From assembly GCA_011364975.1 (NCBI GenBank), contig RDOE01000030.1, positions 1 through 37,705 on the forward strand: DNA of 37,705 nucleotides. Reading direction: 5' to 3'. The notes under the pieces are model-generated. The model did not search any database and was not told where the DNA came from. It worked only from the letters and a program-made list of their open reading frames with translations. The position numbers were made by a program, and so were the translations under genes. This DNA comes from Promethearchaeota archaeon. Lineage in GTDB: Archaea; Asgardarchaeota; Lokiarchaeia; Sigyniarchaeales; SOKP01. Of the stretch, positions 39 through 11,063 are shown one piece after another (position 1 is the first letter of the stretch; the number at the start of each line of letters is the position of its first letter).

Positions 39-3000
39 TTGATTCGGATAAAAAATATCGAAAATTTTAAAATTACCTTCTTAATACTATCTATACTTAC
101 ATCATCAAGTATTTTATTGAACTCATTTTTATTTTTTCCAGAAAATGGGATCGATATAGTTGATAACGGATATAATGATAGTGATTTTCAAACCACTGAT
201 ATTATAGCTCATCCAAAATCGAATTATTTTGGAGATGCTCCTTGGTGGAGTGATTCATTTGAGTATAGAAAGGTTATAAATATCACTAATCCTTACATGT
301 CATCTTTTAAGGATTTTGGAGTTAGTTTTTCTTTTAATTACTATGAACTAGTTGAGAATGGGAAATTACAAGGGGATTTAGACGATATTAGAATAATAGA
401 AAACGGTTGTTTGCGTAAATATTACGTAGTTAAAGATTATCCTTTATCAAATCAAGCTACTGTGTTTTTTGAGACAAATATTTCACAGAACACGGTAGAA
501 ACAGATACATATATGTATTTTGGTAATCCAACAGCAAGTAATTTAGAATCCATTGATCCCGAGGATAGCTTTGGATGGATTAAAAATGGTAATTTTGAAC
601 TGGATATTAGTTTAAGTGATAAATTTGTACCTTATGGTTGGTCTTTTTCCCATAATCCCGTAGACCAAATTATGGATCATGCAAATCCTAATCCTAATCC
701 TTATAACAGCTCTGATACAAGTATTCAATTCTTTGTTAATAAACTGATCAATAATCCTCAAGGAGCAGAGAGAGTAGCTCAAGGGACTTACACTTATAAA
801 TTTGGAGCTTTAAGTCCTACACTTCCAGATGGTGCAGTTAATGACTATGCAGGTACTTTTTTCTCATATCCATTTAAAGTACCTACTGTTGAAGGAGGTA
901 TTTCATTAACTTTTTATCGTAATATCAGAACATACCGTTTTGAAAGGCCTAAAAATATGGGAGATATTAACCAAGATGGATATTTCATTCGTATACTCAA
1001 TGGGTCGATTTCGCATTATGATATAAATCCAGATAATCATGATGATAATGCTATTAGTATTAGTTTTGAAAATTATGTTGAATCTTACGATGGATATGGA
1101 TATTATAATGTACCTGCGAAGAAATGGAGTGATCCTACAGTACTAATTGATTATCCAAACCATTTAACAACTAAAGATACCTTATCAGATACTGGAAATG
1201 ACGGAAATCTAACAGGGTATGTTGAATTTGATTTGTCAAACTATATGGGAAAGGATATTTTTTTTGAAATTGGAGTCTGGGGAGATGAATCAAATGTAGA
1301 TAGAAAAGAAAAATCAGCTTTTTTCCAATTAGACGATCTTAAATTTAACTACACTTTAACAGCAAGCCTAAATGAAATCCAAGCAAGGAAATCAAATATT
1401 ACTATCATTACGAGAGATGTGGATGGCCGAATAGTACCAAATACAAAAATATTTTTATTGAATGAAACTGCAAAAGGAACTCCAAACTATATTGTTAATA
1501 CAGGATATACTTCAGAATTAGATGGCTCAATAACCTTTAATAATGTTTTAAATGGTGAATATAATATTACCGCAAATTATACTTTAGGACCCCGGGAAAG
1601 ATTTGTAGGAAATAAACTAAAACAATTGAATGGTACGAATTATATAGTTGAATTATCAATAAATATATGGACAATAGATTTTGAAATTGTAGACTGGGAC
1701 AAAATTCCAATGAATTATGGTTACATTGAGATAAATGAAAGCTTTGGAGGACCTATGTTAAAGAATATGACGTTAAATAATGAAGGAAAAGCAACCTTTC
1801 GTTGGCTTAATCAATCAGAGTACTATTTCAAAGTATATTACAAAAATCGAGATTATAGAAATGGTACATTTTTATTAAGTGAATCATACATAACACGGCA
1901 AGAATATAATAATGAGCGTTTTAAAAATCAATCATTTGTTGTTTCAAATATAAATAAGGCTAATGCTGTTGAAGAACGTTACCTAGTTCAAGAAAGAATC
2001 TATACCAATGGTTCAAGAACCGAAATTGGAAACAAGATGCTTATCAAAGCAAATATTACTTTAGTAAACATGAATAGTAGACTTAAGAATATTTCTGTAT
2101 ATTATATCGATAAATATAATTCAACGGGCGTAGGAAATGAGAATCTAATATTTTTCAAAAATTACTATGGGTTTAATGAAGATAATGATTTCATTAAAAT
2201 AGATCTCCCATTATCAGATAATATTAAGTTAAAAAGTGAGAAATTTCAAGTTTATGGATTATACGTAGTAATAAATGGAGAAAACAGCAGTCAATGTGAT
2301 GGGATAGTTAGTTTTGATTTCTTAGAAACCTGTAATGTATATAATCAAACTAATCTTTCCAGATTAAGTATTCGAGTAATAAACAAAAATGAATTATCTC
2401 CTACTGGAAGCCCAGTCGATTCTATTGTAAAAGTTCATGACAATATGACAGGAGATTTAATCGTGAGCTTGCTCTCTGATGAAAATCGTAATGGTTATGC
2501 TTTCGGACAAATTAATGATATTCCATTTTGGTTTTTTAAAGATAGGGTATATAACTTTTCAATAGACATTGTAAACATCACTGATTCTTATTTTAATATT
2601 ACATTAATGACGCCTGAAAATCAGTGGAAACCAGTAGACAATACAGGACTACAATATTATAATTATTCATTCTACGGTAAAGCTGCGATAACATTTAACA
2701 TAATACTTGAGCAAACGATAAATATTACAAATTATGATACTGCTTTAGTTAATGCTTCTGGATCGTTGGAAGTCTTCTGGAGTGAGCAAATCACTTATTC
2801 GATTATATTTGAATATACACAAGATAATGGAAATTCTTGGTATGCAGTAACTAATCCAATGGCATATTGTAGTTTGTCTATTAAACAAGTAGGATCTGAA
2901 GTAAATCTAATTGAGGTAATCATGAGTAGAGGATTAGGAGATGGTAATTTTACTTCTACAATGAATTCTAGTTTTCTTTCTGCGGGTGTCTCTTCAAAAT

Positions 3001-4412
3001 ATTATATAGTGAAAATAACTGGTCTTTTTCCTGGCTATCCTGAACCAAATTCAATTAGCTTTATTTTAAGAATAAATTCAATTCCAACAGCAATATCTGT
3101 ACATGATTATAATACTAAGATAGAAAGAATTGATAAATCATTTACGACATATTTTAATGAACTTATTAATATCTCTATTAAGCTAAGTGTATTTGAAAGT
3201 GGTTCATCCCTATATGGAGCATTAGTTACCTACACATGGATTGGACTAGAACCAATAGAAATATTAGAGGATTATTTGAACAACGATTATTATACTTTTA
3301 CAATTAATAGTTCAAGAGCTTTAAGCACTGGGGTTAAAATCATAAGCATATCCACCTTACTTGAAAACTATTCCTCGCAAATTAATTTCTTAATATATCT
3401 TGATATTCTTGAAAGAAGAACAGAATTAAATGGAGAAGAAAATTTACTCTACCTAAATCCTAAAGTACTAGTGCAAGATGCTAAAAATTTCATTTTTACG
3501 TATAGAGATGTCAACTCACAAGAAATTATTGGTGATTTAACGGTTGCATCATACACCTGGCAAGAATTATATGAAAATGGAACGATTATTCCAGGACGTG
3601 ATGGAATAGGAAGTTTAACTCAAAATGCGAATAAATCGTACTCCTTAGATTTTAATACAGAATTTAAAAATATTGGTTTTTATTTCTTGTATATTACTTT
3701 ACAAAAAGAAAATTATGAGTCGAAATTCGCATTGATAAATTTAGAAATTATATTGAGAGATTTTACCGCAGAAGTAATTCTTGATGACTTACATAGGACT
3801 CAAATAAACTTAATTCATGGTACTGACTTAGAATTCGAGATTGTTATTAATGATTCGTCGAGAGGAAATATACCTTTACAAAACGCAATAGTGGTCTTAA
3901 AACTTGGAGATTATCAATATAACTTTAATGAAACTTCCCCAGGTGTTTATATGTATATTTTTGAAACTGAGAACATTGAAACTTTTTTCGCACCTCGTTT
4001 ATTAGCAGGGACGATTTTGATTCAAAAATCAAACTTTACTTCTCAGGAGACTAGAATTAATATAAGCATACAAATGGAAGAAATTTTCCCTGGAATGCCA
4101 ACATTTTATTTTATTTTGCTAATTTCAGCAATCATAGGCATTGCTGGGAGTTTAACCATATATAGAGTAGTTCAGCAAGCAAGAATACCAAAATTCATCA
4201 AAAAAGTAAGAAAAGTGAAAGCTGTTATTAAGTCCAACAAACCCATACGTGATTCTTTATTAACCAAAACAAAGGAGCAAATGATGATAAACCTTTATAA
4301 TGAAGATTGGAAATCACTTGAAATATCCTTAGAAAGTATTTTAGGCATTGAGGAAAAGAGGCCCAAGGAACTAATTAAAAAAGATAAAAAACCACCAGAG
4401 GAGGTAAAATGA
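39..4412 (+). CDS. Large membrane-anchored cell-surface glycoprotein (N-terminal signal/TM, DUF2341-like domain, multiple Ig-like/beta-sandwich domains, C-terminal TM, ~82-aa basic cytoplasmic tail)
   Basis: 1457-aa ORF with TTG start. Hydrophobic N-terminus ITFLILSILTSSSILLNSFLFF. PWWSDSFEYRKVINITN...DLDDIRI...YMYFGNP is typical of DUF2341-type domains. About 40 N-x-S/T sequons by eye, all before the TM FYFILLISAIIGIAGSLTIY (nt 4104-4163). Confidence 0.8.
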   Translation: MIRIKNIENFKITFLILSILTSSSILLNSFLFFPENGIDIVDNGYNDSDFQTTDIIAHPKSNYFGDAPWWSDSFEYRKVINITNPYMSSFKDFGVSFSFNYYELVENGKLQGDLDDIRIIENGCLRKYYVVKDYPLSNQATVFFETNISQNTVETDTYMYFGNPTASNLESIDPEDSFGWIKNGNFELDISLSDKFVPYGWSFSHNPVDQIMDHANPNPNPYNSSDTSIQFFVNKLINNPQGAERVAQGTYTYKFGALSPTLPDGAVNDYAGTFFSYPFKVPTVEGGISLTFYRNIRTYRFERPKNMGDINQDGYFIRILNGSISHYDINPDNHDDNAISISFENYVESYDGYGYYNVPAKKWSDPTVLIDYPNHLTTKDTLSDTGNDGNLTGYVEFDLSNYMGKDIFFEIGVWGDESNVDRKEKSAFFQLDDLKFNYTLTASLNEIQARKSNITIITRDVDGRIVPNTKIFLLNETAKGTPNYIVNTGYTSELDGSITFNNVLNGEYNITANYTLGPRERFVGNKLKQLNGTNYIVELSINIWTIDFEIVDWDKIPMNYGYIEINESFGGPMLKNMTLNNEGKATFRWLNQSEYYFKVYYKNRDYRNGTFLLSESYITRQEYNNERFKNQSFVVSNINKANAVEERYLVQERIYTNGSRTEIGNKMLIKANITLVNMNSRLKNISVYYIDKYNSTGVGNENLIFFKNYYGFNEDNDFIKIDLPLSDNIKLKSEKFQVYGLYVVINGENSSQCDGIVSFDFLETCNVYNQTNLSRLSIRVINKNELSPTGSPVDSIVKVHDNMTGDLIVSLLSDENRNGYAFGQINDIPFWFFKDRVYNFSIDIVNITDSYFNITLMTPENQWKPVDNTGLQYYNYSFYGKAAITFNIILEQTINITNYDTALVNASGSLEVFWSEQITYSIIFEYTQDNGNSWYAVTNPMAYCSLSIKQVGSEVNLIEVIMSRGLGDGNFTSTMNSSFLSAGVSSKYYIVKITGLFPGYPEPNSISFILRINSIPTAISVHDYNTKIERIDKSFTTYFNELINISIKLSVFESGSSLYGALVTYTWIGLEPIEILEDYLNNDYYTFTINSSRALSTGVKIISISTLLENYSSQINFLIYLDILERRTELNGEENLLYLNPKVLVQDAKNFIFTYRDVNSQEIIGDLTVASYTWQELYENGTIIPGRDGIGSLTQNANKSYSLDFNTEFKNIGFYFLYITLQKENYESKFALINLEIILRDFTAEVILDDLHRTQINLIHGTDLEFEIVINDSSRGNIPLQNAIVVLKLGDYQYNFNETSPGVYMYIFETENIETFFAPRLLAGTILIQKSNFTSQETRINISIQMEEIFPGMPTFYFILLISAIIGIAGSLTIYRVVQQARIPKFIKKVRKVKAVIKSNKPIRDSLLTKTKEQMMINLYNEDWKSLEISLESILGIEEKRPKELIKKDKKPPEEVK
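4400..4405 (+). promoter_or_regulatory. Shine-Dalgarno site for the 4417 gene, embedded in the 3' end of the upstream ORF
   Basis: GGAGGT 11 nt before ATG 4417; only 4 nt separate the two ORFs. Confidence 0.55.
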
Positions 4413-4416
4413 AGCT

Positions 4417-5520
4417 ATGCCAATTGGATTAATTATCATGAAATGGGATCCTAAAATAAGCACCGAAATTGTTAAAAAATACCCTGAAGAAATAATTGTT
4501 ACAGATGAGACTTTAATGCAAATTTACGCCGCTCATGAATATACGTCTGAACCGGGCATGATTAGTTTATTAGTAGGACATTTGAATATTGCCTCCTATT
4601 ATACTGGTAGTGAAAAACCCTTATATATTATCTTATTATTGGGTTTAGATGAAGATCCTGATCTTTATGAAGGGGGATTAACGGATATTGCAAGATTAAT
4701 TCTTCAAAATTATGAGGAAAGAGCATATGTTGAAATGGTTCCTTTCTTATTTCAGAGATTATCAGCTTATCCCCATTTAAATAAAGAACAAACTTTAGCT
4801 ATCACATATCAAGACGAAATAAATAGATTAATTATAAATAGACTTAGAGAAGAAGGAGTAGTCTTAAAATCTGATTTGAAGATTTGGTTAAAAGATAAGT
4901 ACAGAAAGGTATTTATTGATCTCGACTCTACATTGATGGAATTAATTAAGAGAGAGATTATTAAAGAAAGCACTGTTAAAGGAATGCCTTCTGAATTAAT
5001 TTTCTTTATAAATGATATTTTTATGATTCGAAAACCTCCTACTAATCTATATATAAACCCAGTAGAGCGGGGACTTCCTGAAGATTTTGCAGAAGAATAT
5101 CATTCTATGATTAAACGGTTTTTCCAATCATATCGCCCAAATGAAGAGGATTACCTTAAACTTTTAGATCTTTTTACTGATCCACAAACCTACGAAATTT
5201 TAAAACTACTGAGGCTCGCAATAGTAACAAGAAATTCTTTAGAAAAACTTAAGAAAAAAGGAGTAGAAGATCTCGATAGCGGATTAAAGAAATTATGGAA
5301 TAATAACCTTGTTCATGTTTTTATGAATAATAATGGTGTTGAATTTTATGCATTAATTTCGGATTTTCAAATCTCGTTAGTTTATCCCAAATATATCTTA
5401 AATACAATCTTACATCAGTATGATGTCAAATCTAAATCGGAGGGGGTTTTAATTGAATATCTTAGAGTGCTGGAAGATGTATATTATCCACATAAACCAA
5501 AAAGAAAAACTAAGGCTTAA
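4417..5520 (+). CDS. Longin/uDENN-like domain protein with two predicted winged-helix segments (NPRL2-like architecture)
   Basis: N-terminus MPIGLIIMKWDPKISTEIVKKYPEE followed by a beta/alpha pattern matching the longin/uDENN fold. wHTH-like segments LIINRLREEGVVLKSDL..LMELIKREII and EILKLLRLAIVTRNSLEKL..LKKLWNNNLV. Fold call is by eye. Confidence 0.55.
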   Translation: MPIGLIIMKWDPKISTEIVKKYPEEIIVTDETLMQIYAAHEYTSEPGMISLLVGHLNIASYYTGSEKPLYIILLLGLDEDPDLYEGGLTDIARLILQNYEERAYVEMVPFLFQRLSAYPHLNKEQTLAITYQDEINRLIINRLREEGVVLKSDLKIWLKDKYRKVFIDLDSTLMELIKREIIKESTVKGMPSELIFFINDIFMIRKPPTNLYINPVERGLPEDFAEEYHSMIKRFFQSYRPNEEDYLKLLDLFTDPQTYEILKLLRLAIVTRNSLEKLKKKGVEDLDSGLKKLWNNNLVHVFMNNNGVEFYALISDFQISLVYPKYILNTILHQYDVKSKSEGVLIEYLRVLEDVYYPHKPKRKTKA

Positions 5521-5524
5521 ATAA

Positions 5525-5540
5525 TTTTTTTTATATTTTT
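5525..5540 (+). terminator. Oligo-T archaeal terminator-like tract between convergent genes
   Basis: T8 followed by a second T run just after the TAA at 5518-5520. Confidence 0.45.
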
Positions 5541-6577
5541 TAATCTTTAATATATCTTCTTAATCTTTCGGCTTTTTCATTAAATTCTCTATAAAGTGCA
5601 TGATCACCTATATCCAAGCATATATGTGATATTTGTTCAAATAAGTTTACACTTTCTTCTATTTCCCCTTCCTCTAAGCTTTTTCTTGCCAGCTGGATTA
5701 ATCTATCTCTTTCAAAGATTGGTTTTAATAATGGAGAGGCTTCCATATTCATATCTAAAATTTCAGCAATGATTGTAATCATTTTTTCGCGATTATTAGG
5801 ATCAATAGCAATCATAGGATAGGTTCTTAAACCCATTATCGCTTCAATTTTTTCAAGGCTTAAAGCATCATGTAAATCTTGTTTATTACCAATTACAGCA
5901 GAATGTGCATTTGGACATTGATCTTTAATTAATTCCACAAAATATCTACTTTTTTCTACATTTTCTAAACGGGAGTCTGTAATTATAAGAACTGCATCAC
6001 TTCCATAAATAAAGTCATTCCATAAATAACTAAATTGCTCCTGTCCAGCAAAATCCCATAAATGAAAGTATAATTTTCCAATTTTAATTGTAGAGACTTT
6101 GCCGGTTATTGTCGGTATATGAACACTTGGAATTTCTTCAGCTCTTATAAGGTTAGTAATTGTGGTTTTTCCCACTCCAGAAAATCCAACCAATGAGATT
6201 TTTGTCTTTATATTTTTATGTATTGATTCTACTATGGGATTAAGTATCTCTAGTAAAGTTAAATCTAAATTATCAAGGCTATCACCAAAAGATTCAACAA
6301 ATTCTTTTTTTAATTTTTTCAATTCGAATTTTACTTGTTCTAAGTCATCATTTAAACCGATTATGAATATAAAAGTAACCCCTAAATCTTTATCAATAGT
6401 ATATAAGATTTGATATTTAAAGTAATAAGAAGTACCAAAATCATCAAAAAATCCATAAGATGCTTGAATTTTAATTTCTTCATAAATACTCTGAAAATTT
6501 TCAAATGTTAAGTTTCTTCCAAAATTCTTTTCGTAAATAATATTACCATCTTTAAGAATGTATACTTGTCTTAACAT
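5540..6577 (-). CDS. Arf-like small GTPase with N-terminal longin domain and C-terminal helical (TPR/MIT-like) extension
   Basis: G1 GFSGVGKTT (nt 6161-6187), G2 IPTIT, G3 WDFAGQE, G4 NKQD, G5-like MIAID. The N-terminal ~120 aa (MLRQVYILKDGNIIYEKNF...FIFIIG..DD) is longin-like. Confidence 0.9.
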   Translation of the reverse strand: MLRQVYILKDGNIIYEKNFGRNLTFENFQSIYEEIKIQASYGFFDDFGTSYYFKYQILYTIDKDLGVTFIFIIGLNDDLEQVKFELKKLKKEFVESFGDSLDNLDLTLLEILNPIVESIHKNIKTKISLVGFSGVGKTTITNLIRAEEIPSVHIPTITGKVSTIKIGKLYFHLWDFAGQEQFSYLWNDFIYGSDAVLIITDSRLENVEKSRYFVELIKDQCPNAHSAVIGNKQDLHDALSLEKIEAIMGLRTYPMIAIDPNNREKMITIIAEILDMNMEASPLLKPIFERDRLIQLARKSLEEGEIEESVNLFEQISHICLDIGDHALYREFNEKAERLRRYIKD

Positions 6578-6869: not shown

Positions 6870-7646
6870 TCATAGATTTAATATTTTAGATAGATTATAT
6901 CTAATTTCTTGATAACTAACAGCGCTCTCGGAAATATCAATTATAGGTTTACCTTGAGCATCATAATTTCTAATTATTTCGTCTTCAGGTATTAAAGCGA
7001 AAAGCTCAAAATTCAATTCGTGAAGCTTAACTATGATCTTATTGGGATCTAATTTGAAGCGATTTATAATTATACCAATTTTTTTATAGTTAGTAAATTT
7101 TTTTGCACTTTCTCTAATAGAAATTGCGGTATTAATACTCCTCTGAGACTCATCTGAAACAATGATTACAATGTCAACAGATTGTATTACCATTCGGTTG
7201 ATCTGCTCTAAACCCGCCTCACAATCAATCAAAACAATCTCAAAGTCTTTGGAAATAGATTCAATCACTTTTTTCATTATCGCGTTCGAAGGACAAAAAC
7301 AACCTGGTTCTTCTGATTGACCAATCGAGAATAAACTATACTGCTTTGTTTCAACTAAAGCGTTATAAACCTGAAAATCAATAATTTCTGCTAAATCTTC
7401 TCCGTTTTTCTCTCCCGATTGAATATTTGCAATTAATTCAGATTTAATTGCTTCTAAACTTCTTGTTGGATTTAGTTTCAGCATCTTACTTAAATGTGGA
7501 TAGGTTGGATCCCCATCAATCAATAAAAGCTTATAATTATAATTAGTAGATAAAGCTTTGATGAGTAGTGTTGTTATGATTGTCTTTCCGGCTCCACCTT
7601 TTCCCACAACAGCAATTATCAAAGGTTTTTTTTTAATTTGAAGCAT
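6870..7646 (-). CDS. cooC: CooC/AcsF-family nickel-insertion ATPase (MinD/SIMIBI class)
   Basis: Deviant Walker A GKGGAGKT, IDGDP, metal-binding GCFCP (CxC), Walker B/switch IDCEAGLEQINR. Confidence 0.85.
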   Translation of the reverse strand: MLQIKKKPLIIAVVGKGGAGKTIITTLLIKALSTNYNYKLLLIDGDPTYPHLSKMLKLNPTRSLEAIKSELIANIQSGEKNGEDLAEIIDFQVYNALVETKQYSLFSIGQSEEPGCFCPSNAIMKKVIESISKDFEIVLIDCEAGLEQINRMVIQSVDIVIIVSDESQRSINTAISIRESAKKFTNYKKIGIIINRFKLDPNKIIVKLHELNFELFALIPEDEIIRNYDAQGKPIIDISESAVSYQEIRYNLSKILNL

Positions 7647-7664
7647 TTTTATCTTTTTTGAATT

Positions 7665-8432
7665 TTAATTTTCTAATTCTTCTCTCTCTATTAGTACTTT
7701 TTTGATATTATAACAGTCTTCTTGATAAGGACAAATTTCACAGCCCCAATCATACTCACAATCAATTCTTTTTTTCCATTCTTCAACTTTTTTTTTCCAT
7801 CTATTTTTAATTTGTGTGATTAATTCTAAAGATACCTCTATAAAATGATCTAAGGTGTCAGGATAAGAATTAATGAAAAATACTTCTATTGCTCTTATTA
7901 GTTTTCCAAATTTTTGTCGATATAAGTGCTGGATTGCATTTCCTAAAAATTCAAATGAGAAACCTTTTTTAATAATATCGGAACTAATTCTACACCAAAA
8001 TTTTCTAGGGATAGTTCTTATCAAGAATCCTTCTATGCTATTAGAGATGAAATTCAACTGTCTTAATTTCTCAATTTCTTTTTCAATACTTGTTCCAATT
8101 CCAATTAATAAAAAAAGACCAAAATCTAATGGAGAATCCTTGATTGAATTAATTTCATGGCCCAATAATGTAATGTTATTATCTTGTATCAAATTTAATT
8201 CTTGTAATGGAAAAATTAGTGAAAAAGATTTTTTATTTATGCCTCCTAATTCTAATCCAGTTTCTTCCTGTATAATTATTTCTTTATAATGATCTAGCGC
8301 TACTCCAATATCATAATTTGCAAGAAAGTTGGAAAAATTAGGATTCCCTTGATATATAATCAGATTTTTCCCGCGTTGAGATTCGTTGTTAAAAAAATGT
8401 CTAATTCTTTTTATCACTGGTTCATACTGCAT
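7665..8432 (-). CDS. Truncated acetyl-CoA synthase beta (CdhC/AcsB)-like protein with a C-terminal four-Cys motif
   Basis: ELGG..KSFSL, I.D..ITLLG.EI, IEGF.IR, WCRIS..IIKKGFSFEFLG and AIEVFF match the N-terminal part of archaeal CdhC. The protein ends in CEYDWGCEICPYQEDC rather than an A-cluster domain. Confidence 0.65.
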   Translation of the reverse strand: MQYEPVIKRIRHFFNNESQRGKNLIIYQGNPNFSNFLANYDIGVALDHYKEIIIQEETGLELGGINKKSFSLIFPLQELNLIQDNNITLLGHEINSIKDSPLDFGLFLLIGIGTSIEKEIEKLRQLNFISNSIEGFLIRTIPRKFWCRISSDIIKKGFSFEFLGNAIQHLYRQKFGKLIRAIEVFFINSYPDTLDHFIEVSLELITQIKNRWKKKVEEWKKRIDCEYDWGCEICPYQEDCYNIKKVLIEREELEN

Positions 8433-8616: not shown

Positions 8617-9738
8617 ATGTCTTTTTTAGAACAATTTATACAAGCAAAGCCCCTTTTAAATCCTTGGATTAAAAATTGGAAAAGTGAGGATAAAAAGGTT
8701 TTAGGGTATTTTTGTTCGTATATTCCTGAAGAAATAATTTATGCTGCTGATATTTTACCAATTAGAATTAGAGCAAGAACATGTACTGATACTCCATTAG
8801 GAGATGCTTACATGAGTTCTACTACCTGTAGTTACACAAGATGCTGTCTTGAGTTAGCAAATAGAAAACAGTTAGATTTTCTCGATGGAATAGTTTCCTG
8901 CAATTGTTGCGATCAAATTAGGCGACTTTATGATAATATTAGATATAAAGCGCCTTTTAAGCATCACTATATTATGGGAATACCAGGTAATGTCAGTACT
9001 ACAACCTTGGATTGGTTTAAGCATGAAATAAACAAATTTAAAGCTTATTTAGAAAAAAATTTTAATGTTAGTATCACAAATGAAAAAATTAGTAAAGCAA
9101 TTTCAATATATAATAAATCACGAGAGCTTTTAAGTAAGTTGTATGAGCTTAGAAAAGATAAGTATCCTCCAATATCAGGAAGCGATATTTTGGAGATATT
9201 AACTGCTGCAATATCCATTCCAAAATCTGAATTCAATGCTTTACTAGAGAAGCAACTTCCAGAAATTAAAAGGAAGAAAGGGGTTAACAATTATAAATCT
9301 AGGATTATGATGGTGGGAAGTTTGCTTGATGATCCCGAATATTTAACAATTATAGAAGATCTAGGAGGATTAGTAGTAACAGATTCCTTATGTATTGGAA
9401 GTAGATACTTCTGGGATAAGGTTGAAGCATCTTCAAACCCTCTAGATGCTCTTGCTCTCCGTTATTTATCGAAAGTCTCATGTCCCCGTATGACAGACGG
9501 ATATTTGCAAAGAGCAGAATTTATGATGAATATGATCAAAGAGTTTAATGTAAATGGTGTTATATTTCAAAGATTGAAGTTTTGTGCTTTATGGAGTGCT
9601 GAGATATTCCTGCTTAGAAATAAATTAAAAGAAGAAAATATTCCTTTCCTTGATTTAGAAAGAGAATATATATTAAGCGGTACCGGAGCTATTAAGACTC
9701 GAGTGCAAACCTTCATGGAAATTTTAGAAGCGAGATGA
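8617..9738 (+). CDS. 2-hydroxyacyl-CoA dehydratase / benzoyl-CoA reductase family subunit (HgdB/FldC/BcrC/BzdN-like)
   Basis: GYFCSYIPEEIIYAA, TCSYTR, NCCDQIRR, CPRM, KFCAL and C-terminal TRVQTFMEIL. Confidence 0.88.
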   Translation: MSFLEQFIQAKPLLNPWIKNWKSEDKKVLGYFCSYIPEEIIYAADILPIRIRARTCTDTPLGDAYMSSTTCSYTRCCLELANRKQLDFLDGIVSCNCCDQIRRLYDNIRYKAPFKHHYIMGIPGNVSTTTLDWFKHEINKFKAYLEKNFNVSITNEKISKAISIYNKSRELLSKLYELRKDKYPPISGSDILEILTAAISIPKSEFNALLEKQLPEIKRKKGVNNYKSRIMMVGSLLDDPEYLTIIEDLGGLVVTDSLCIGSRYFWDKVEASSNPLDALALRYLSKVSCPRMTDGYLQRAEFMMNMIKEFNVNGVIFQRLKFCALWSAEIFLLRNKLKEENIPFLDLEREYILSGTGAIKTRVQTFMEILEAR

Positions 9739-11063
9739 AGAGCATGGATGTAGAATTATTTAACAAATATAAAAAACTAGGTAGAGGAAATTGGGGAAAC
9801 GATCTTTCTATGTGGAAAATGATGTATATGGGATTTTTGAACCAAAGAAAAGAGGAAGAATTTACACCTATTTTAGAGCTATTATTTAACATCTTTCTGG
9901 ACCTTCCTAAGGCAAGAAAGGAAGGTAAGTCTGTTGTAATGCATCCATTCAATTATGGTCCTGAATTATTTTATGCAATGAACTTAGCTCCTCTTATGCA
10001 AGAAATATTTAGCGTTGGGTTAGCCCCATTACATCTTAATGAGCCTTATATAGATTTTAGTAATAAAATAGGATATGGAGACAATCCAACGTTATGTAAT
10101 GCTCAAAGACCTTTAATCGGCTCTTTTATGCAGGGGGTTGCACCAATTCCTGATCTCTTGTTTTTTCTTTCCACGCCTTGCAATTCTCTTGCTATGACTT
10201 ATCAAGTTTTTGAACATTTAGCAAAAATCCCTGCGTTTAATATGGATGTTCCTTATTGGGCATATGAGAAGCAGAATAATGAATTTTATGATGAAAAAAC
10301 TCTTGAATATATGGTTAACCAAATAAAGGATTTAATTTCATGGTTAGAACAAGAAAAAAAGCAAAAGTTAGATTTTGAAAATCTGCAACAAACCATGAAA
10401 AATGTCAATCAATCAAGAGAATATATTTTAGAGTTTAATGAACTTTTAAAAACAATTCCTTGTCCCATGCCAAGCCAAGCAGGTTTTGGAAATTTTCTCG
10501 CTATGGTAACTCGAGGTGGTACTGATGATGCTGTCAAAGCTACCAAATTTCTGCGTGATACTGCTTTAGAAAATGTTAAAAATGGCATAGCGGGTGTACC
10601 TGATGAGAAGGTTAGAATTGCTTGGCCTTATACTCATGTCTTTTTTGATGCAGATCTTTTAACCTGGTTAGAAAAAACATTCAACGCAGTGACGATTATG
10701 GATATTTTAGGATATTACCAAATTCTTCCCCATGATACCAATACAATTGAGAAATGTTATGAGAGTCTAGCCTTAGGAACGTTAGATTTTTCTATGGTTG
10801 GAACATGTCGAGGCCCTATCGAATATTATATTGAATTCTTATTAAATTATGTAAAAGATTATAAAATAGATTGTGTAATTATGCCTATGCAGTTTGCATG
10901 TAAACATGCTTATAGTATGGCTAGGGTTAGTTCAGAAGCTTTGCGAGAGGAGACAGGTATTCCGGTTTTAATCTTTGGTTGTGATCCTTACGATTCACGC
11001 GAGGTAACTTCAGATGCAATAAGAGGCAGAATTTCAGATTTTCTCACTCAAATAGTTTTATAA
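9735..11063 (+). CDS. 2-hydroxyacyl-CoA dehydratase / benzoyl-CoA reductase family subunit (HgdA/FldB/BcrB/BzdO-like)
   Basis: PELFYAM, LCNAQR, PCNS, DVPY, FACKH, DPYDSR..RISDFL. ATGA overlap with the previous gene. Confidence 0.85.
   Translation: MKSMDVELFNKYKKLGRGNWGNDLSMWKMMYMGFLNQRKEEEFTPILELLFNIFLDLPKARKEGKSVVMHPFNYGPELFYAMNLAPLMQEIFSVGLAPLHLNEPYIDFSNKIGYGDNPTLCNAQRPLIGSFMQGVAPIPDLLFFLSTPCNSLAMTYQVFEHLAKIPAFNMDVPYWAYEKQNNEFYDEKTLEYMVNQIKDLISWLEQEKKQKLDFENLQQTMKNVNQSREYILEFNELLKTIPCPMPSQAGFGNFLAMVTRGGTDDAVKATKFLRDTALENVKNGIAGVPDEKVRIAWPYTHVFFDADLLTWLEKTFNAVTIMDILGYYQILPHDTNTIEKCYESLALGTLDFSMVGTCRGPIEYYIEFLLNYVKDYKIDCVIMPMQFACKHAYSMARVSSEALREETGIPVLIFGCDPYDSREVTSDAIRGRISDFLTQIVL

Follow-up and report, generated by a model that had tools for sequence, protein, structure and literature searches.

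Three adjacent genes at the end of contig RDOE01000030.1 of Promethearchaeota archaeon (assembly GCA_011364975.1) encode a candidate giant surface protein, termed SURF, a 367-aa cytoplasmic protein, termed P367, and a small GTPase in which a longin-like domain precedes an Arf-like G domain. The window analysed is the whole stretch of 37,705 nt (positions 1 to 37,705, forward strand), which is AT-rich (G+C 27-35%). The three-gene module is real, since the linkage of SURF with P367 and that of P367 with the GTPase are both conserved, fusions and operons included. P367 is considered the hub: its partner is a surface protein in some lineages and the GTPase in others, and several lineages combine both. 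The favoured interpretation, given a probability of roughly 0.6, is that of one membrane-associated small-GTPase module in which P367 is a subunit of SURF and a platform for the GTPase.

Asgard archaea possess dozens of eukaryote-like small GTPases, together with longin and roadblock proteins, and it is largely unknown which regulator is paired with which GTPase and at which sites. The module brings together a matched set in which the GTPase (Arf-like), its longin-type partner (of NPRL2/NPRL3 layout) and the membrane anchor are all defined. Genome layout rarely helps to match Asgard regulators to GTPases, according to the available text of Tran et al. 2024 (PMC10933270), and lokiarchaeal cells are described, in the portion available of another report, as lacking an S-layer and being covered by large surface proteins (PMC9834061), the class to which this anchor belongs. 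Should binding be confirmed, the module would provide, for the archaea most closely related to eukaryotes, the first concrete path by which the cell surface connects with a eukaryote-type GTPase switch; this link is now testable and could be studied with recombinant proteins.

The three open reading frames (ORFs) reported in a first-pass annotation of the window were all confirmed in the ORF list, with the following layout:

39..4412, + strand: SURF, 1457 aa, type-I single-pass surface glycoprotein candidate with a TTG start (ORF, sequons, linkage)
4400..4405, + strand: GGAGGT, Shine-Dalgarno-like motif for P367, inside the end of the SURF coding sequence and 11 nt before the ATG
4417..5520, + strand: P367, 367-aa cytoplasmic protein with a longin-like domain and two winged helices, proposed module hub (ORF, AlphaFold2 (AF2) prediction, homologues)
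5521..5539, no strand: T-rich 19-nt spacer between the convergent stops of P367 and the GTPase
5540..6577, - strand: longin-like plus Arf-like small GTPase, 345 aa (ORF, Pfam, AF2, PDB profile, Foldseek)

SURF starts 38 nt into the window, at the contig end, and its promoter region lies outside the visible DNA. All three genes have conserved homologues, numbering in the hundreds for P367 (702 matches) and the GTPase (1097 matches), and the adjacency was found again in 79 and 48 other loci. The arrangement is far beyond anything expected by chance.

Coupling of SURF to P367

The SURF stop codon (TGA, 4410-4412) and the P367 start codon (ATG, 4417) are separated by 4 nt, with the GGAGGT motif embedded upstream, as described at first pass. 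A gene-neighbourhood survey was strongly positive, the SURF-P367 pair proving near-invariant and translationally coupled (110 of 118 copies, plus one fusion). This near set comprised 79 related loci with 118 full-length P367 copies, several per locus, and the 110 copies are those in which a same-strand, SURF-type ORF ends between -60 and +40 nt of P367. Among these upstream ORFs, 98 are at least 400 aa long and 72 overlap P367 by 1 nt (stop/start). The remaining copies consist of the in-frame fusion, two without room on the contig and five without such an ORF. A second, distant set comprised 48 loci from 19 coded GTDB families, chosen before their neighbours were known, with 52 full-length P367 copies. 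At least 28 of these 52 have a SURF-type neighbour or are fused to one. The order is SURF then P367 in families f1, f2, f13, f17 and f26 and in 1/3 of the f3 copies, P367 then SURF in f7, f15 and f13, and P367, a small ORF and then SURF in f3 and f13.

Protein fusion is a classical sign of two proteins acting as one unit. P367 forms the C-terminal end of proteins of 588-2548 aa in 9 of the 150 representative clusters listed, and the four of these nine that were read carry a transmembrane (TM) helix, a basic tail and P367 in one chain without a stop. Moreover, the genome under study itself encodes, on another contig, a fusion of SURF, tail and P367 (727 aa, open at the contig end), and one distant locus (L133) holds a complete SURF-P367 fusion of 2661 aa, other in-frame fusions occurring in the same set. 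Since P367 is fused behind the TM helix and tail, its topology is fixed and it must lie inside the cell. The fusions also suggest that P367 is a constitutive receptor subunit rather than a factor recruited by the tail, as had been proposed. In addition, the charges of the two partners are complementary, with an isoelectric point (pI) of 9.9 for the SURF tail (residues 1377-1457) and of 4.5 for the longin-like domain of P367.

The segments of SURF are as follows:

72..137, + strand: N-terminal hydrophobic signal or anchor segment, residues 12-33 (read from sequence)
4095..4163, + strand: C-terminal TM helix, residues ~1353-1375 (sequence and conservation table)
4164..4409, + strand: basic cytoplasmic tail, residues 1376-1457, with the conserved juxtamembrane motif QQARIP.F[IV]KK.RK.K (conservation, pI)

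The C-terminal TM helix and 82-aa tail thus agree with the earlier description. The 1315-residue ectodomain contains 42 N-x-S/T sequons, whereas its own N, S and T content gives an estimate of about 19, and Pfam gave just weak matches to DUF2341 and CarboxypepD_reg, both below cut-off. Conservation was assessed over the last 400 residues of the window protein and of 99 SURF ORFs upstream of P367 genes (100 sequences). The most conserved stretch begins close to the outer face of the membrane and includes the TM helix and the first 60 residues of the tail, with top-residue frequencies of 0.63-0.76 at residues 1378-1437 versus 0.31-0.59 farther out in the ectodomain; columns 1338-1377, covering the TM region, are among the best conserved (0.64-0.71). 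A tail that is conserved while the ectodomain diverges points to a conserved cytoplasmic partner. The ectodomains of SURF relatives include Ig-like and CarboxypepD_reg domains, and a LamG-like match below threshold. In family f2, a SURF-type protein upstream of P367 (L105:7936-12780, - strand) carries FG-GAP repeats (Pfam 53 bits, over cut-off, three stretches); the resulting plan, in which a predicted propeller outside the cell is followed by a single TM helix and a short tail, recalls integrin alpha chains.

The 727-aa fusion of SURF, tail and P367 on the other contig of this genome (L082, 384-3587) is a paralogue that converges, at 34 nt, on a 328-aa Ras-family GTPase extended by 160 aa at its N-terminus. 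Receptor and GTPase are thereby paired a second time in the genome, here with a GTPase of another family. The N-terminus of this GTPase had been considered roadblock-like by eye and is not so named here, Pfam at E <= 0.001 giving the Ras family only.

Linkage of P367 to the longin-Arf-like GTPase

In the window, P367 and the GTPase are convergent with 19 nt (5521-5539) between their stop codons, as the first-pass annotation noted. In the near set, 46 loci have a primary P367 copy at least 68% identical to that of the window, and a longin-Arf GTPase converges on 44 of these at 20-102 nt (in one case 422 nt); the other two loci end 0 and 52 nt after P367, leaving no room for a GTPase. Also retained in these clusters are a second SURF-P367 pair, an ORF of 438 aa that is RuBisCO-like by eye, and a leucine-rich repeat (LRR)-type gene. 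Taken alone, the convergence in 44 of 44 could be inherited synteny, and the distant set was sampled for this reason.

Within the distant set, a longin-Arf-like GTPase lies within two genes of 18 of the 52 P367 copies and is directly adjacent to 15. Fourteen of these 15 are on the same strand, with gaps of -4 to 692 nt, and these 14 span eight families (f1, f8, f9, f11, f12, f13, f15, f19). Small gaps are frequent: L103 and L113 have -4 nt, and the gap is 7-41 nt for L096, L100, L101, L111, L112, L123 and L127. SURF, P367 and the GTPase follow one another on one strand in L100 (f13) and L139 (f1), and in L133 the GTPase follows the fused SURF-P367 gene. The GTPase family has at most about six copies per genome, and chance adjacency with P367 is therefore estimated at well under 1% per gene. 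The earlier caveat that operon structure does not show the GTPase link is correct for the window, and the link appears in same-strand operons of other Asgard families. In family f12 (L097, L118, L128), a same-strand trio consists of a 313-320-aa protein that matches the longin part of P367 only, the GTPase and a P367 of 514-580 aa; this trio could be a heterodimeric longin pair with its own GTPase. In each of nine neighbouring GTPases compared with Pfam, about 60 to 165 residues precede the G domain. Seven of the nine match Arf best; the f12 operon GTPase matches Roc slightly better than Arf, and the best family of the 328-aa GTPase of the genome under study is Ras.

The distribution of the two genes was also compared across the phylum. 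P367 was found (E <= 1e-10) in 148 of 201 genomes and 19 of 27 families, and the GTPase (E <= 1e-30) in 139 of 201 genomes and 17 of 27 families. Both occur in 16 families and neither in seven (45 genomes); three families have P367 only and one has the GTPase only. The phyletic patterns agree, in counts for which relatives are not independent and thresholds matter, the adjacent GTPase of f11, for instance, scoring below the cut used.

Part of this evidence also bears on the possibility that the complex consists of SURF and P367 only, with P367 anchoring, folding, sorting or linking the tail and the GTPase being a neighbour by descent. The convergent orientation of the GTPase fits such a two-part complex, as do the broad synteny in close relatives, which extends to unrelated genes, and the number of P367 copies with no adjacent GTPase (74 of 118 in the near set and 34 of 52 in the distant set). 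Nevertheless, this explanation is judged unlikely. Against it stand the same-strand P367-GTPase operons in eight GTDB families, often without SURF (f8, f9, f11, f12, f19), the three-gene same-strand operons of L100 and L139, and the concordant phyletic patterns. Complex prediction for P367 with the GTPase scored 0.00 in two runs without controls, which speaks neither for nor against binding.

Other genes surround the module. Upstream (5') of the GTPase and on the same strand (6870-8432, -), the window encodes an ATPase of MinD/ParA type (Pfam CbiA) and a 255-aa protein whose match to CdhC (acetyl-CoA synthase beta) is confined to the first part of that family, a pair retained only in loci L001-L003 and L021. 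Farther on (8617-11063, +) lies a gene resembling HGD-D and double-cubane-cluster reductases (Pfam E 2e-97), followed by an overlapping 442-aa ORF. In L005-L079, an ORF of 430-470 aa resembling the RuBisCO large subunit (by eye) is kept downstream of the second SURF-P367 pair in 51 cases, and a convergent LRR-type ORF of 320 aa near the cluster in 22. PADLOC anti-phage models gave no family for SURF, P367 or the GTPase at E <= 0.01.

Domain architecture of P367 and the GTPase

Three domains are predicted in P367:

4417..4782, + strand: longin-like domain, residues 1-122, pI 4.5 (AF2 topology, conservation)
4783..5061, + strand: winged-helix domain 1 (WH1), residues 123-215 (hhalign to WH2; low AF2 confidence here)
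5134..5391, + strand: winged-helix domain 2 (WH2), ArsR/TFIIE-like, residues 240-325 (Foldseek, PDB profile, Pfam)

The AF2 model of P367 has a mean predicted local distance difference test score (pLDDT) of 68.5. Residues 1-116 (block pLDDT 77-88) are modelled in the order b-b-a-b-b-b-a-a (b, strand; a, helix), with strands at 4-11, 15-22, 48-53, 56-62 and 69-75 and helices at 30-43, 81-97 and 104-116; these are followed by a poorly predicted helical stretch and a confident winged helix at about residues 245-321. Longin domains are distinguished from roadblock domains by a five-stranded sheet in this order, by two C-terminal helices and by an N-terminus that starts without a helix, as set out in the available text of Tran et al. 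2024 (PMC10933270). As the model has two C-terminal helices and no N-terminal one, residues 1-122 are predicted to follow the longin rather than the roadblock order. In the alignment of 61 members, the family-wide conserved positions of this part are W10, G15, P23, H40, S60 and L75, position 15 being G in at least 90% of the family and S in the window protein.

A profile search of the PDB with P367 gave no longin-family match, Pfam and NCBIfam gave no meaningful family, and a PDB sequence search with the close P367 profile returned one chance-level match only. In the ESM Atlas, whole P367 matched only unnamed Asgard clusters; the rank-2 match of the N-terminal part (0.81) was an archaeal cluster with NPR2 in 19% of its members, which is a lead only. 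Homologues number 702 at E <= 0.001, the 120 listed being 62-99% identical, and all those named among the matches listed are a 'hypothetical protein' from Asgard bins. The P367 profile matched 408 clusters among 1.8 billion representatives. Some members stand alone with long C-terminal extensions, namely P0287 (1046 aa, extension repeat-rich), P0312 (700 aa, extension charged and proline-rich) and L137:6423-8501 (692 aa).

WH2 matched HlyU and CzrA in Foldseek (E about 1e-2) and PH1932 in the PDB profile search (E 1.8e-4), and 6 of 61 diverse members have a Pfam match to HTH_20 or TFIIE_alpha. WH1 is an internal duplicate of WH2 (hhalign probability 97.8%, E 7e-13), with a weak PDB profile match to the winged helix of Mnd1 (E 0.012). 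Such a tandem of winged helix-turn-helix (wHTH) domains, with profile matches of ArsR/TrmB/TFIIE type and a mildly basic WH1 (pI 8.9), raises the speculation that P367 is a membrane-tethered transcription regulator, whose wHTH pair would bind DNA and whose release or activity would be controlled by SURF in a form of one-component transmembrane signalling. This appears highly unlikely: P367 is acidic overall (pI 5.7), WH2 is neutral (pI 6.8), permanent membrane fusion in several lineages makes chromosome binding awkward without cleavage, and the recurrent operon partner is a GTPase. Furthermore, a longin plus wHTH layout serves a GTPase-regulating complex in NPRL2/NPRL3, according to the part of Levine et al. 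2013 that is available (PMC3747258).

The GTPase is likewise divided into three parts:

6215..6577, - strand: N-terminal longin-like domain, residues 1-121 (AF2 topology)
5759..6205, - strand: Arf-like G domain, residues 125-273, with GFSGVGKT, PTITG, WDFAGQ and NKQD (Pfam, PDB profile, Foldseek)
5546..5725, - strand: C-terminal three-helix extension, residues 285-344 (AF2)

Pfam places residues 117-252 in Arf (E 4e-20, 72.3 bits against a cut-off of 22.3), and 24 orthologues share the motifs GFSGVGKT, PTITG, WDFAGQ and NKQD without variation; the WDxxGQ motif has its catalytic Gln. By its Pfam match, G1-G4 motifs and catalytic Gln, the window GTPase is a member of the Arf family. The best PDB profile match is Arf1 (E 8e-16), and the top Foldseek matches are Arl1, the Asgard GerdArfR1 and Arf1. 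The AF2 model (mean pLDDT 75.5) comprises residues 1-121 in b-b-a-b-b-b-a-a order (block pLDDT 74-90; strands at 4-9, 12-18, 48-52, 55-62 and 67-73, helices at 25-40, 79-103 and 106-121), the G domain and three helices. Pfam Longin is matched weakly by 2 of 24 orthologues (best E 0.031), and Clat_adaptor_s recognises the N-terminal domain of the f12 operon GTPase with a score of 22.8 bits, just over the cut-off of 22.5. The predicted topology and the weak sequence match together place the N-terminal domain of the GTPase with longins, and the earlier reading of this gene as a longin domain joined to an Arf GTPase is borne out by Pfam Arf, AF2 topology, PDB profile, Foldseek and, in a related GTPase, Clat_adaptor_s. 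The protein has neither an N-terminal amphipathic helix nor a myristoylated Gly2, its N-terminus being the 120-aa longin-like domain that starts MLRQVYIL, and no TM anchor is seen in the AF2 model. A weak TPR_8 match falls on the C-terminal extension in 2 of 24 orthologues. A second longin-Arf paralogue is present in the same genome (C132:5088-6122, + strand), in an open frame of 600-730 aa with a long C-terminal extension; this type is found across f1 genomes, and genes of 567-571 aa in L106 and L133 look to be the same.

The presence of a longin-like domain and an Arf-like GTPase beside a large secreted membrane protein recalls SR-alpha (SRX) with SR-beta, in which a longin-fold domain meets an Arf-like GTPase at the membrane. 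P367 and the GTPase could thus form a targeting or biogenesis device acting on the giant glycoprotein during its insertion or glycosylation, and Pfam SRPRB is matched weakly by the f12 operon GTPase and by 8 of the 24 orthologues of the window GTPase (best E 8.2e-5). However, P367 lacks an SRP54-type NG GTPase domain, the GTPase lacks a TM anchor, and Arf, not SRPRB, is the best family in 24 of 24 orthologues. Moreover, P367 fused to the C-terminal tail would be made last and would stay on the mature protein. A biogenesis role is consequently regarded as most improbable.

Interpretation and comparison with known systems

In the favoured interpretation of a membrane-associated GTPase module, SURF would be a single-pass, glycosylated surface protein whose TM helix and basic tail carry P367. 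P367 would be its constitutive cytoplasmic subunit, produced in step with SURF through translational coupling, and would serve as a cognate docking or regulatory platform (guanine nucleotide exchange factor, GTPase-activating protein (GAP) or effector) for the longin-Arf-like GTPase, so that the nucleotide state of a eukaryote-like switch would be tied to a particular surface protein. Dimers of longin and roadblock domains are established GTPase platforms in the available text of two earlier reports (PMC3747258, PMC10933270). Physical binding, the domains that would bind each partner and a pairing of the two longin-like domains are all inferred, and information may flow inwards, as signalling, or outwards, as GTPase-controlled placement or clustering of the surface protein.

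Several observations weigh against this interpretation. The longin assignment of P367 comes from AF2 topology alone: the window protein has no longin-type Pfam match at E <= 0.1, the 25 families listed out of the 74 that Pfam gave for 61 members include none of longin type, and Foldseek with the whole model matched winged helices only, with no longin. The longin-like domains of P367 and of the GTPase have no sequence similarity to each other (hhalign probability 0.5%). In the 61-member alignment no arginine is at least 90% conserved in residues 1-122, which argues against an NPRL2-type arginine-finger GAP, R93 and R114 being invariant only within 24 close homologues; such a role for P367 was set aside. 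With regard to linkage, the window GTPase is convergent with P367 and not co-transcribed with it, and the figure of 44 of 44 is inflated by shared ancestry, the whole region being syntenic in close relatives. A convergent longin-Arf gene accompanies none of the 33 primary P367 copies of at most 64% identity, and none of the seven P367 copies of family f7 has a GTPase of its own. Most paralogous SURF-P367 pairs thus lack a GTPase of their own and, if the model holds, must share one. Finally, the association of SURF, P367 and the GTPase is deduced from gene linkage and predictions.

A further and rather improbable view treats P367 together with the longin-Arf GTPase as a prokaryotic precursor of cargo selection driven by Arf. 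The GTP-bound Arf-like switch would engage longin-fold adaptors on the tails of specific surface glycoproteins, which would be sorted, clustered or shed; the protrusions and vesicles observed in cultures of Lokiarchaeia are possible destinations. Each SURF paralogue would have its own adaptor paralogue, and one switch would be common to all. Arf1 with the AP and COPI adaptors (sigma and mu/zeta longin-fold subunits) offers similar parts, namely an Arf-like GTPase, a longin-fold protein and the tail of a TM protein, and the Clat_adaptor_s match of one operon GTPase adds to the likeness. In contrast to those systems, no large adaptin subunits or coat proteins are linked to the module, its longin-like domains lie on the GTPase itself and on P367, and the GTPase is without an amphipathic N-terminal helix.

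With regard to previous work, longin-GTPase fusions and 'NPRL2-like longin' families of Asgard archaea are in print (Liu et al. preprint; Tran et al. 2024; Zhu et al. 2025; Rodrigues-Oliveira et al. 2022; each as far as its available text goes). The literature searched yielded no description of the SURF-P367-GTPase module, no account of giant surface proteins coupled to a longin-wHTH protein and none of operons of the latter with longin-Arf GTPases; the supplements of Liu et al. (asCOGs) and Zhu et al. fell outside the full-text search and may list P367 as an NPRL2-like longin family. There is some risk that part of the module has already been published.

NPRL2-NPRL3 of GATOR1 (yeast Npr2-Npr3) is a longin-domain GAP complex for RagA/Gtr1. 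The predicted layout of P367, a longin-like domain followed by two winged helices, is the same as the N-terminal longin and repeated wHTH of NPRL2/NPRL3 described in the part of Levine et al. 2013 available (PMC3747258). P367 is also genetically tied to a small GTPase, and the f12 GTPase, flanked by two P367-type proteins, recalls the heterodimer. The 'NPRL2-like' label given earlier to P367 therefore holds for its architecture (longin plus tandem winged helices); it does not extend to an NPR2 match in Pfam or a conserved arginine in the longin part. Pfam NPR2 (PF06218) has no match to the window P367 at E <= 0.1, is absent from the 25 families listed for the 61 members scanned, has no match in the genome under study at E <= 1, and has two weak matches in 201 genomes of the phylum, neither over cut-off nor at a P367 gene. 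The Folliculin model, searched in the genome under study and in the 201 genomes of the phylum, gave no P367-related match. As for the uDENN-like reading first given for P367, there are no DENN Pfam matches, and two winged helices, in place of core and downstream DENN domains, follow the longin-like domain. A further difference from NPRL2-NPRL3 lies in the partner: instead of a Rag heterodimer, whose roadblock domains are C-terminal, P367 is linked to an Arf-like GTPase that carries a longin-like domain at its own N-terminus. P367 is, moreover, joined to a surface protein, and the P367 loci examined showed no DEPDC5-like neighbour. Asgard longins of FLCN/SMCR8 type, according to the accessible part of a 2025 Traffic paper, have a GP motif and an arginine finger, whereas P367 keeps no arginine.

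Ragulator-Rag and MglA-MglB follow the logic proposed for the module, a membrane-held platform of longin or roadblock fold docking and regulating a small GTPase, in the sources as available. In the module, however, the anchor would be neither lipidated LAMTOR1 nor a polar landmark but a giant single-pass glycoprotein, and the platform would have a longin rather than a roadblock fold. The window GTPase has the same architecture as the Asgard longin-GTPase fusions (the L-G proteins of Tran et al. 2024, the AArfs of Zhu et al. 2025 and the longin-Rag-family fusions of Liu et al., as presented in the available text). In MK-D1, GTPase genes are generally not in operons with roadblock or longin genes, according to the same portion of Tran et al. 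2024 (PMC10933270). The papers on such fusions, in their available parts, give no partner for the GTPase, whereas here operons and fusions indicate both a longin-type partner and a membrane anchor.

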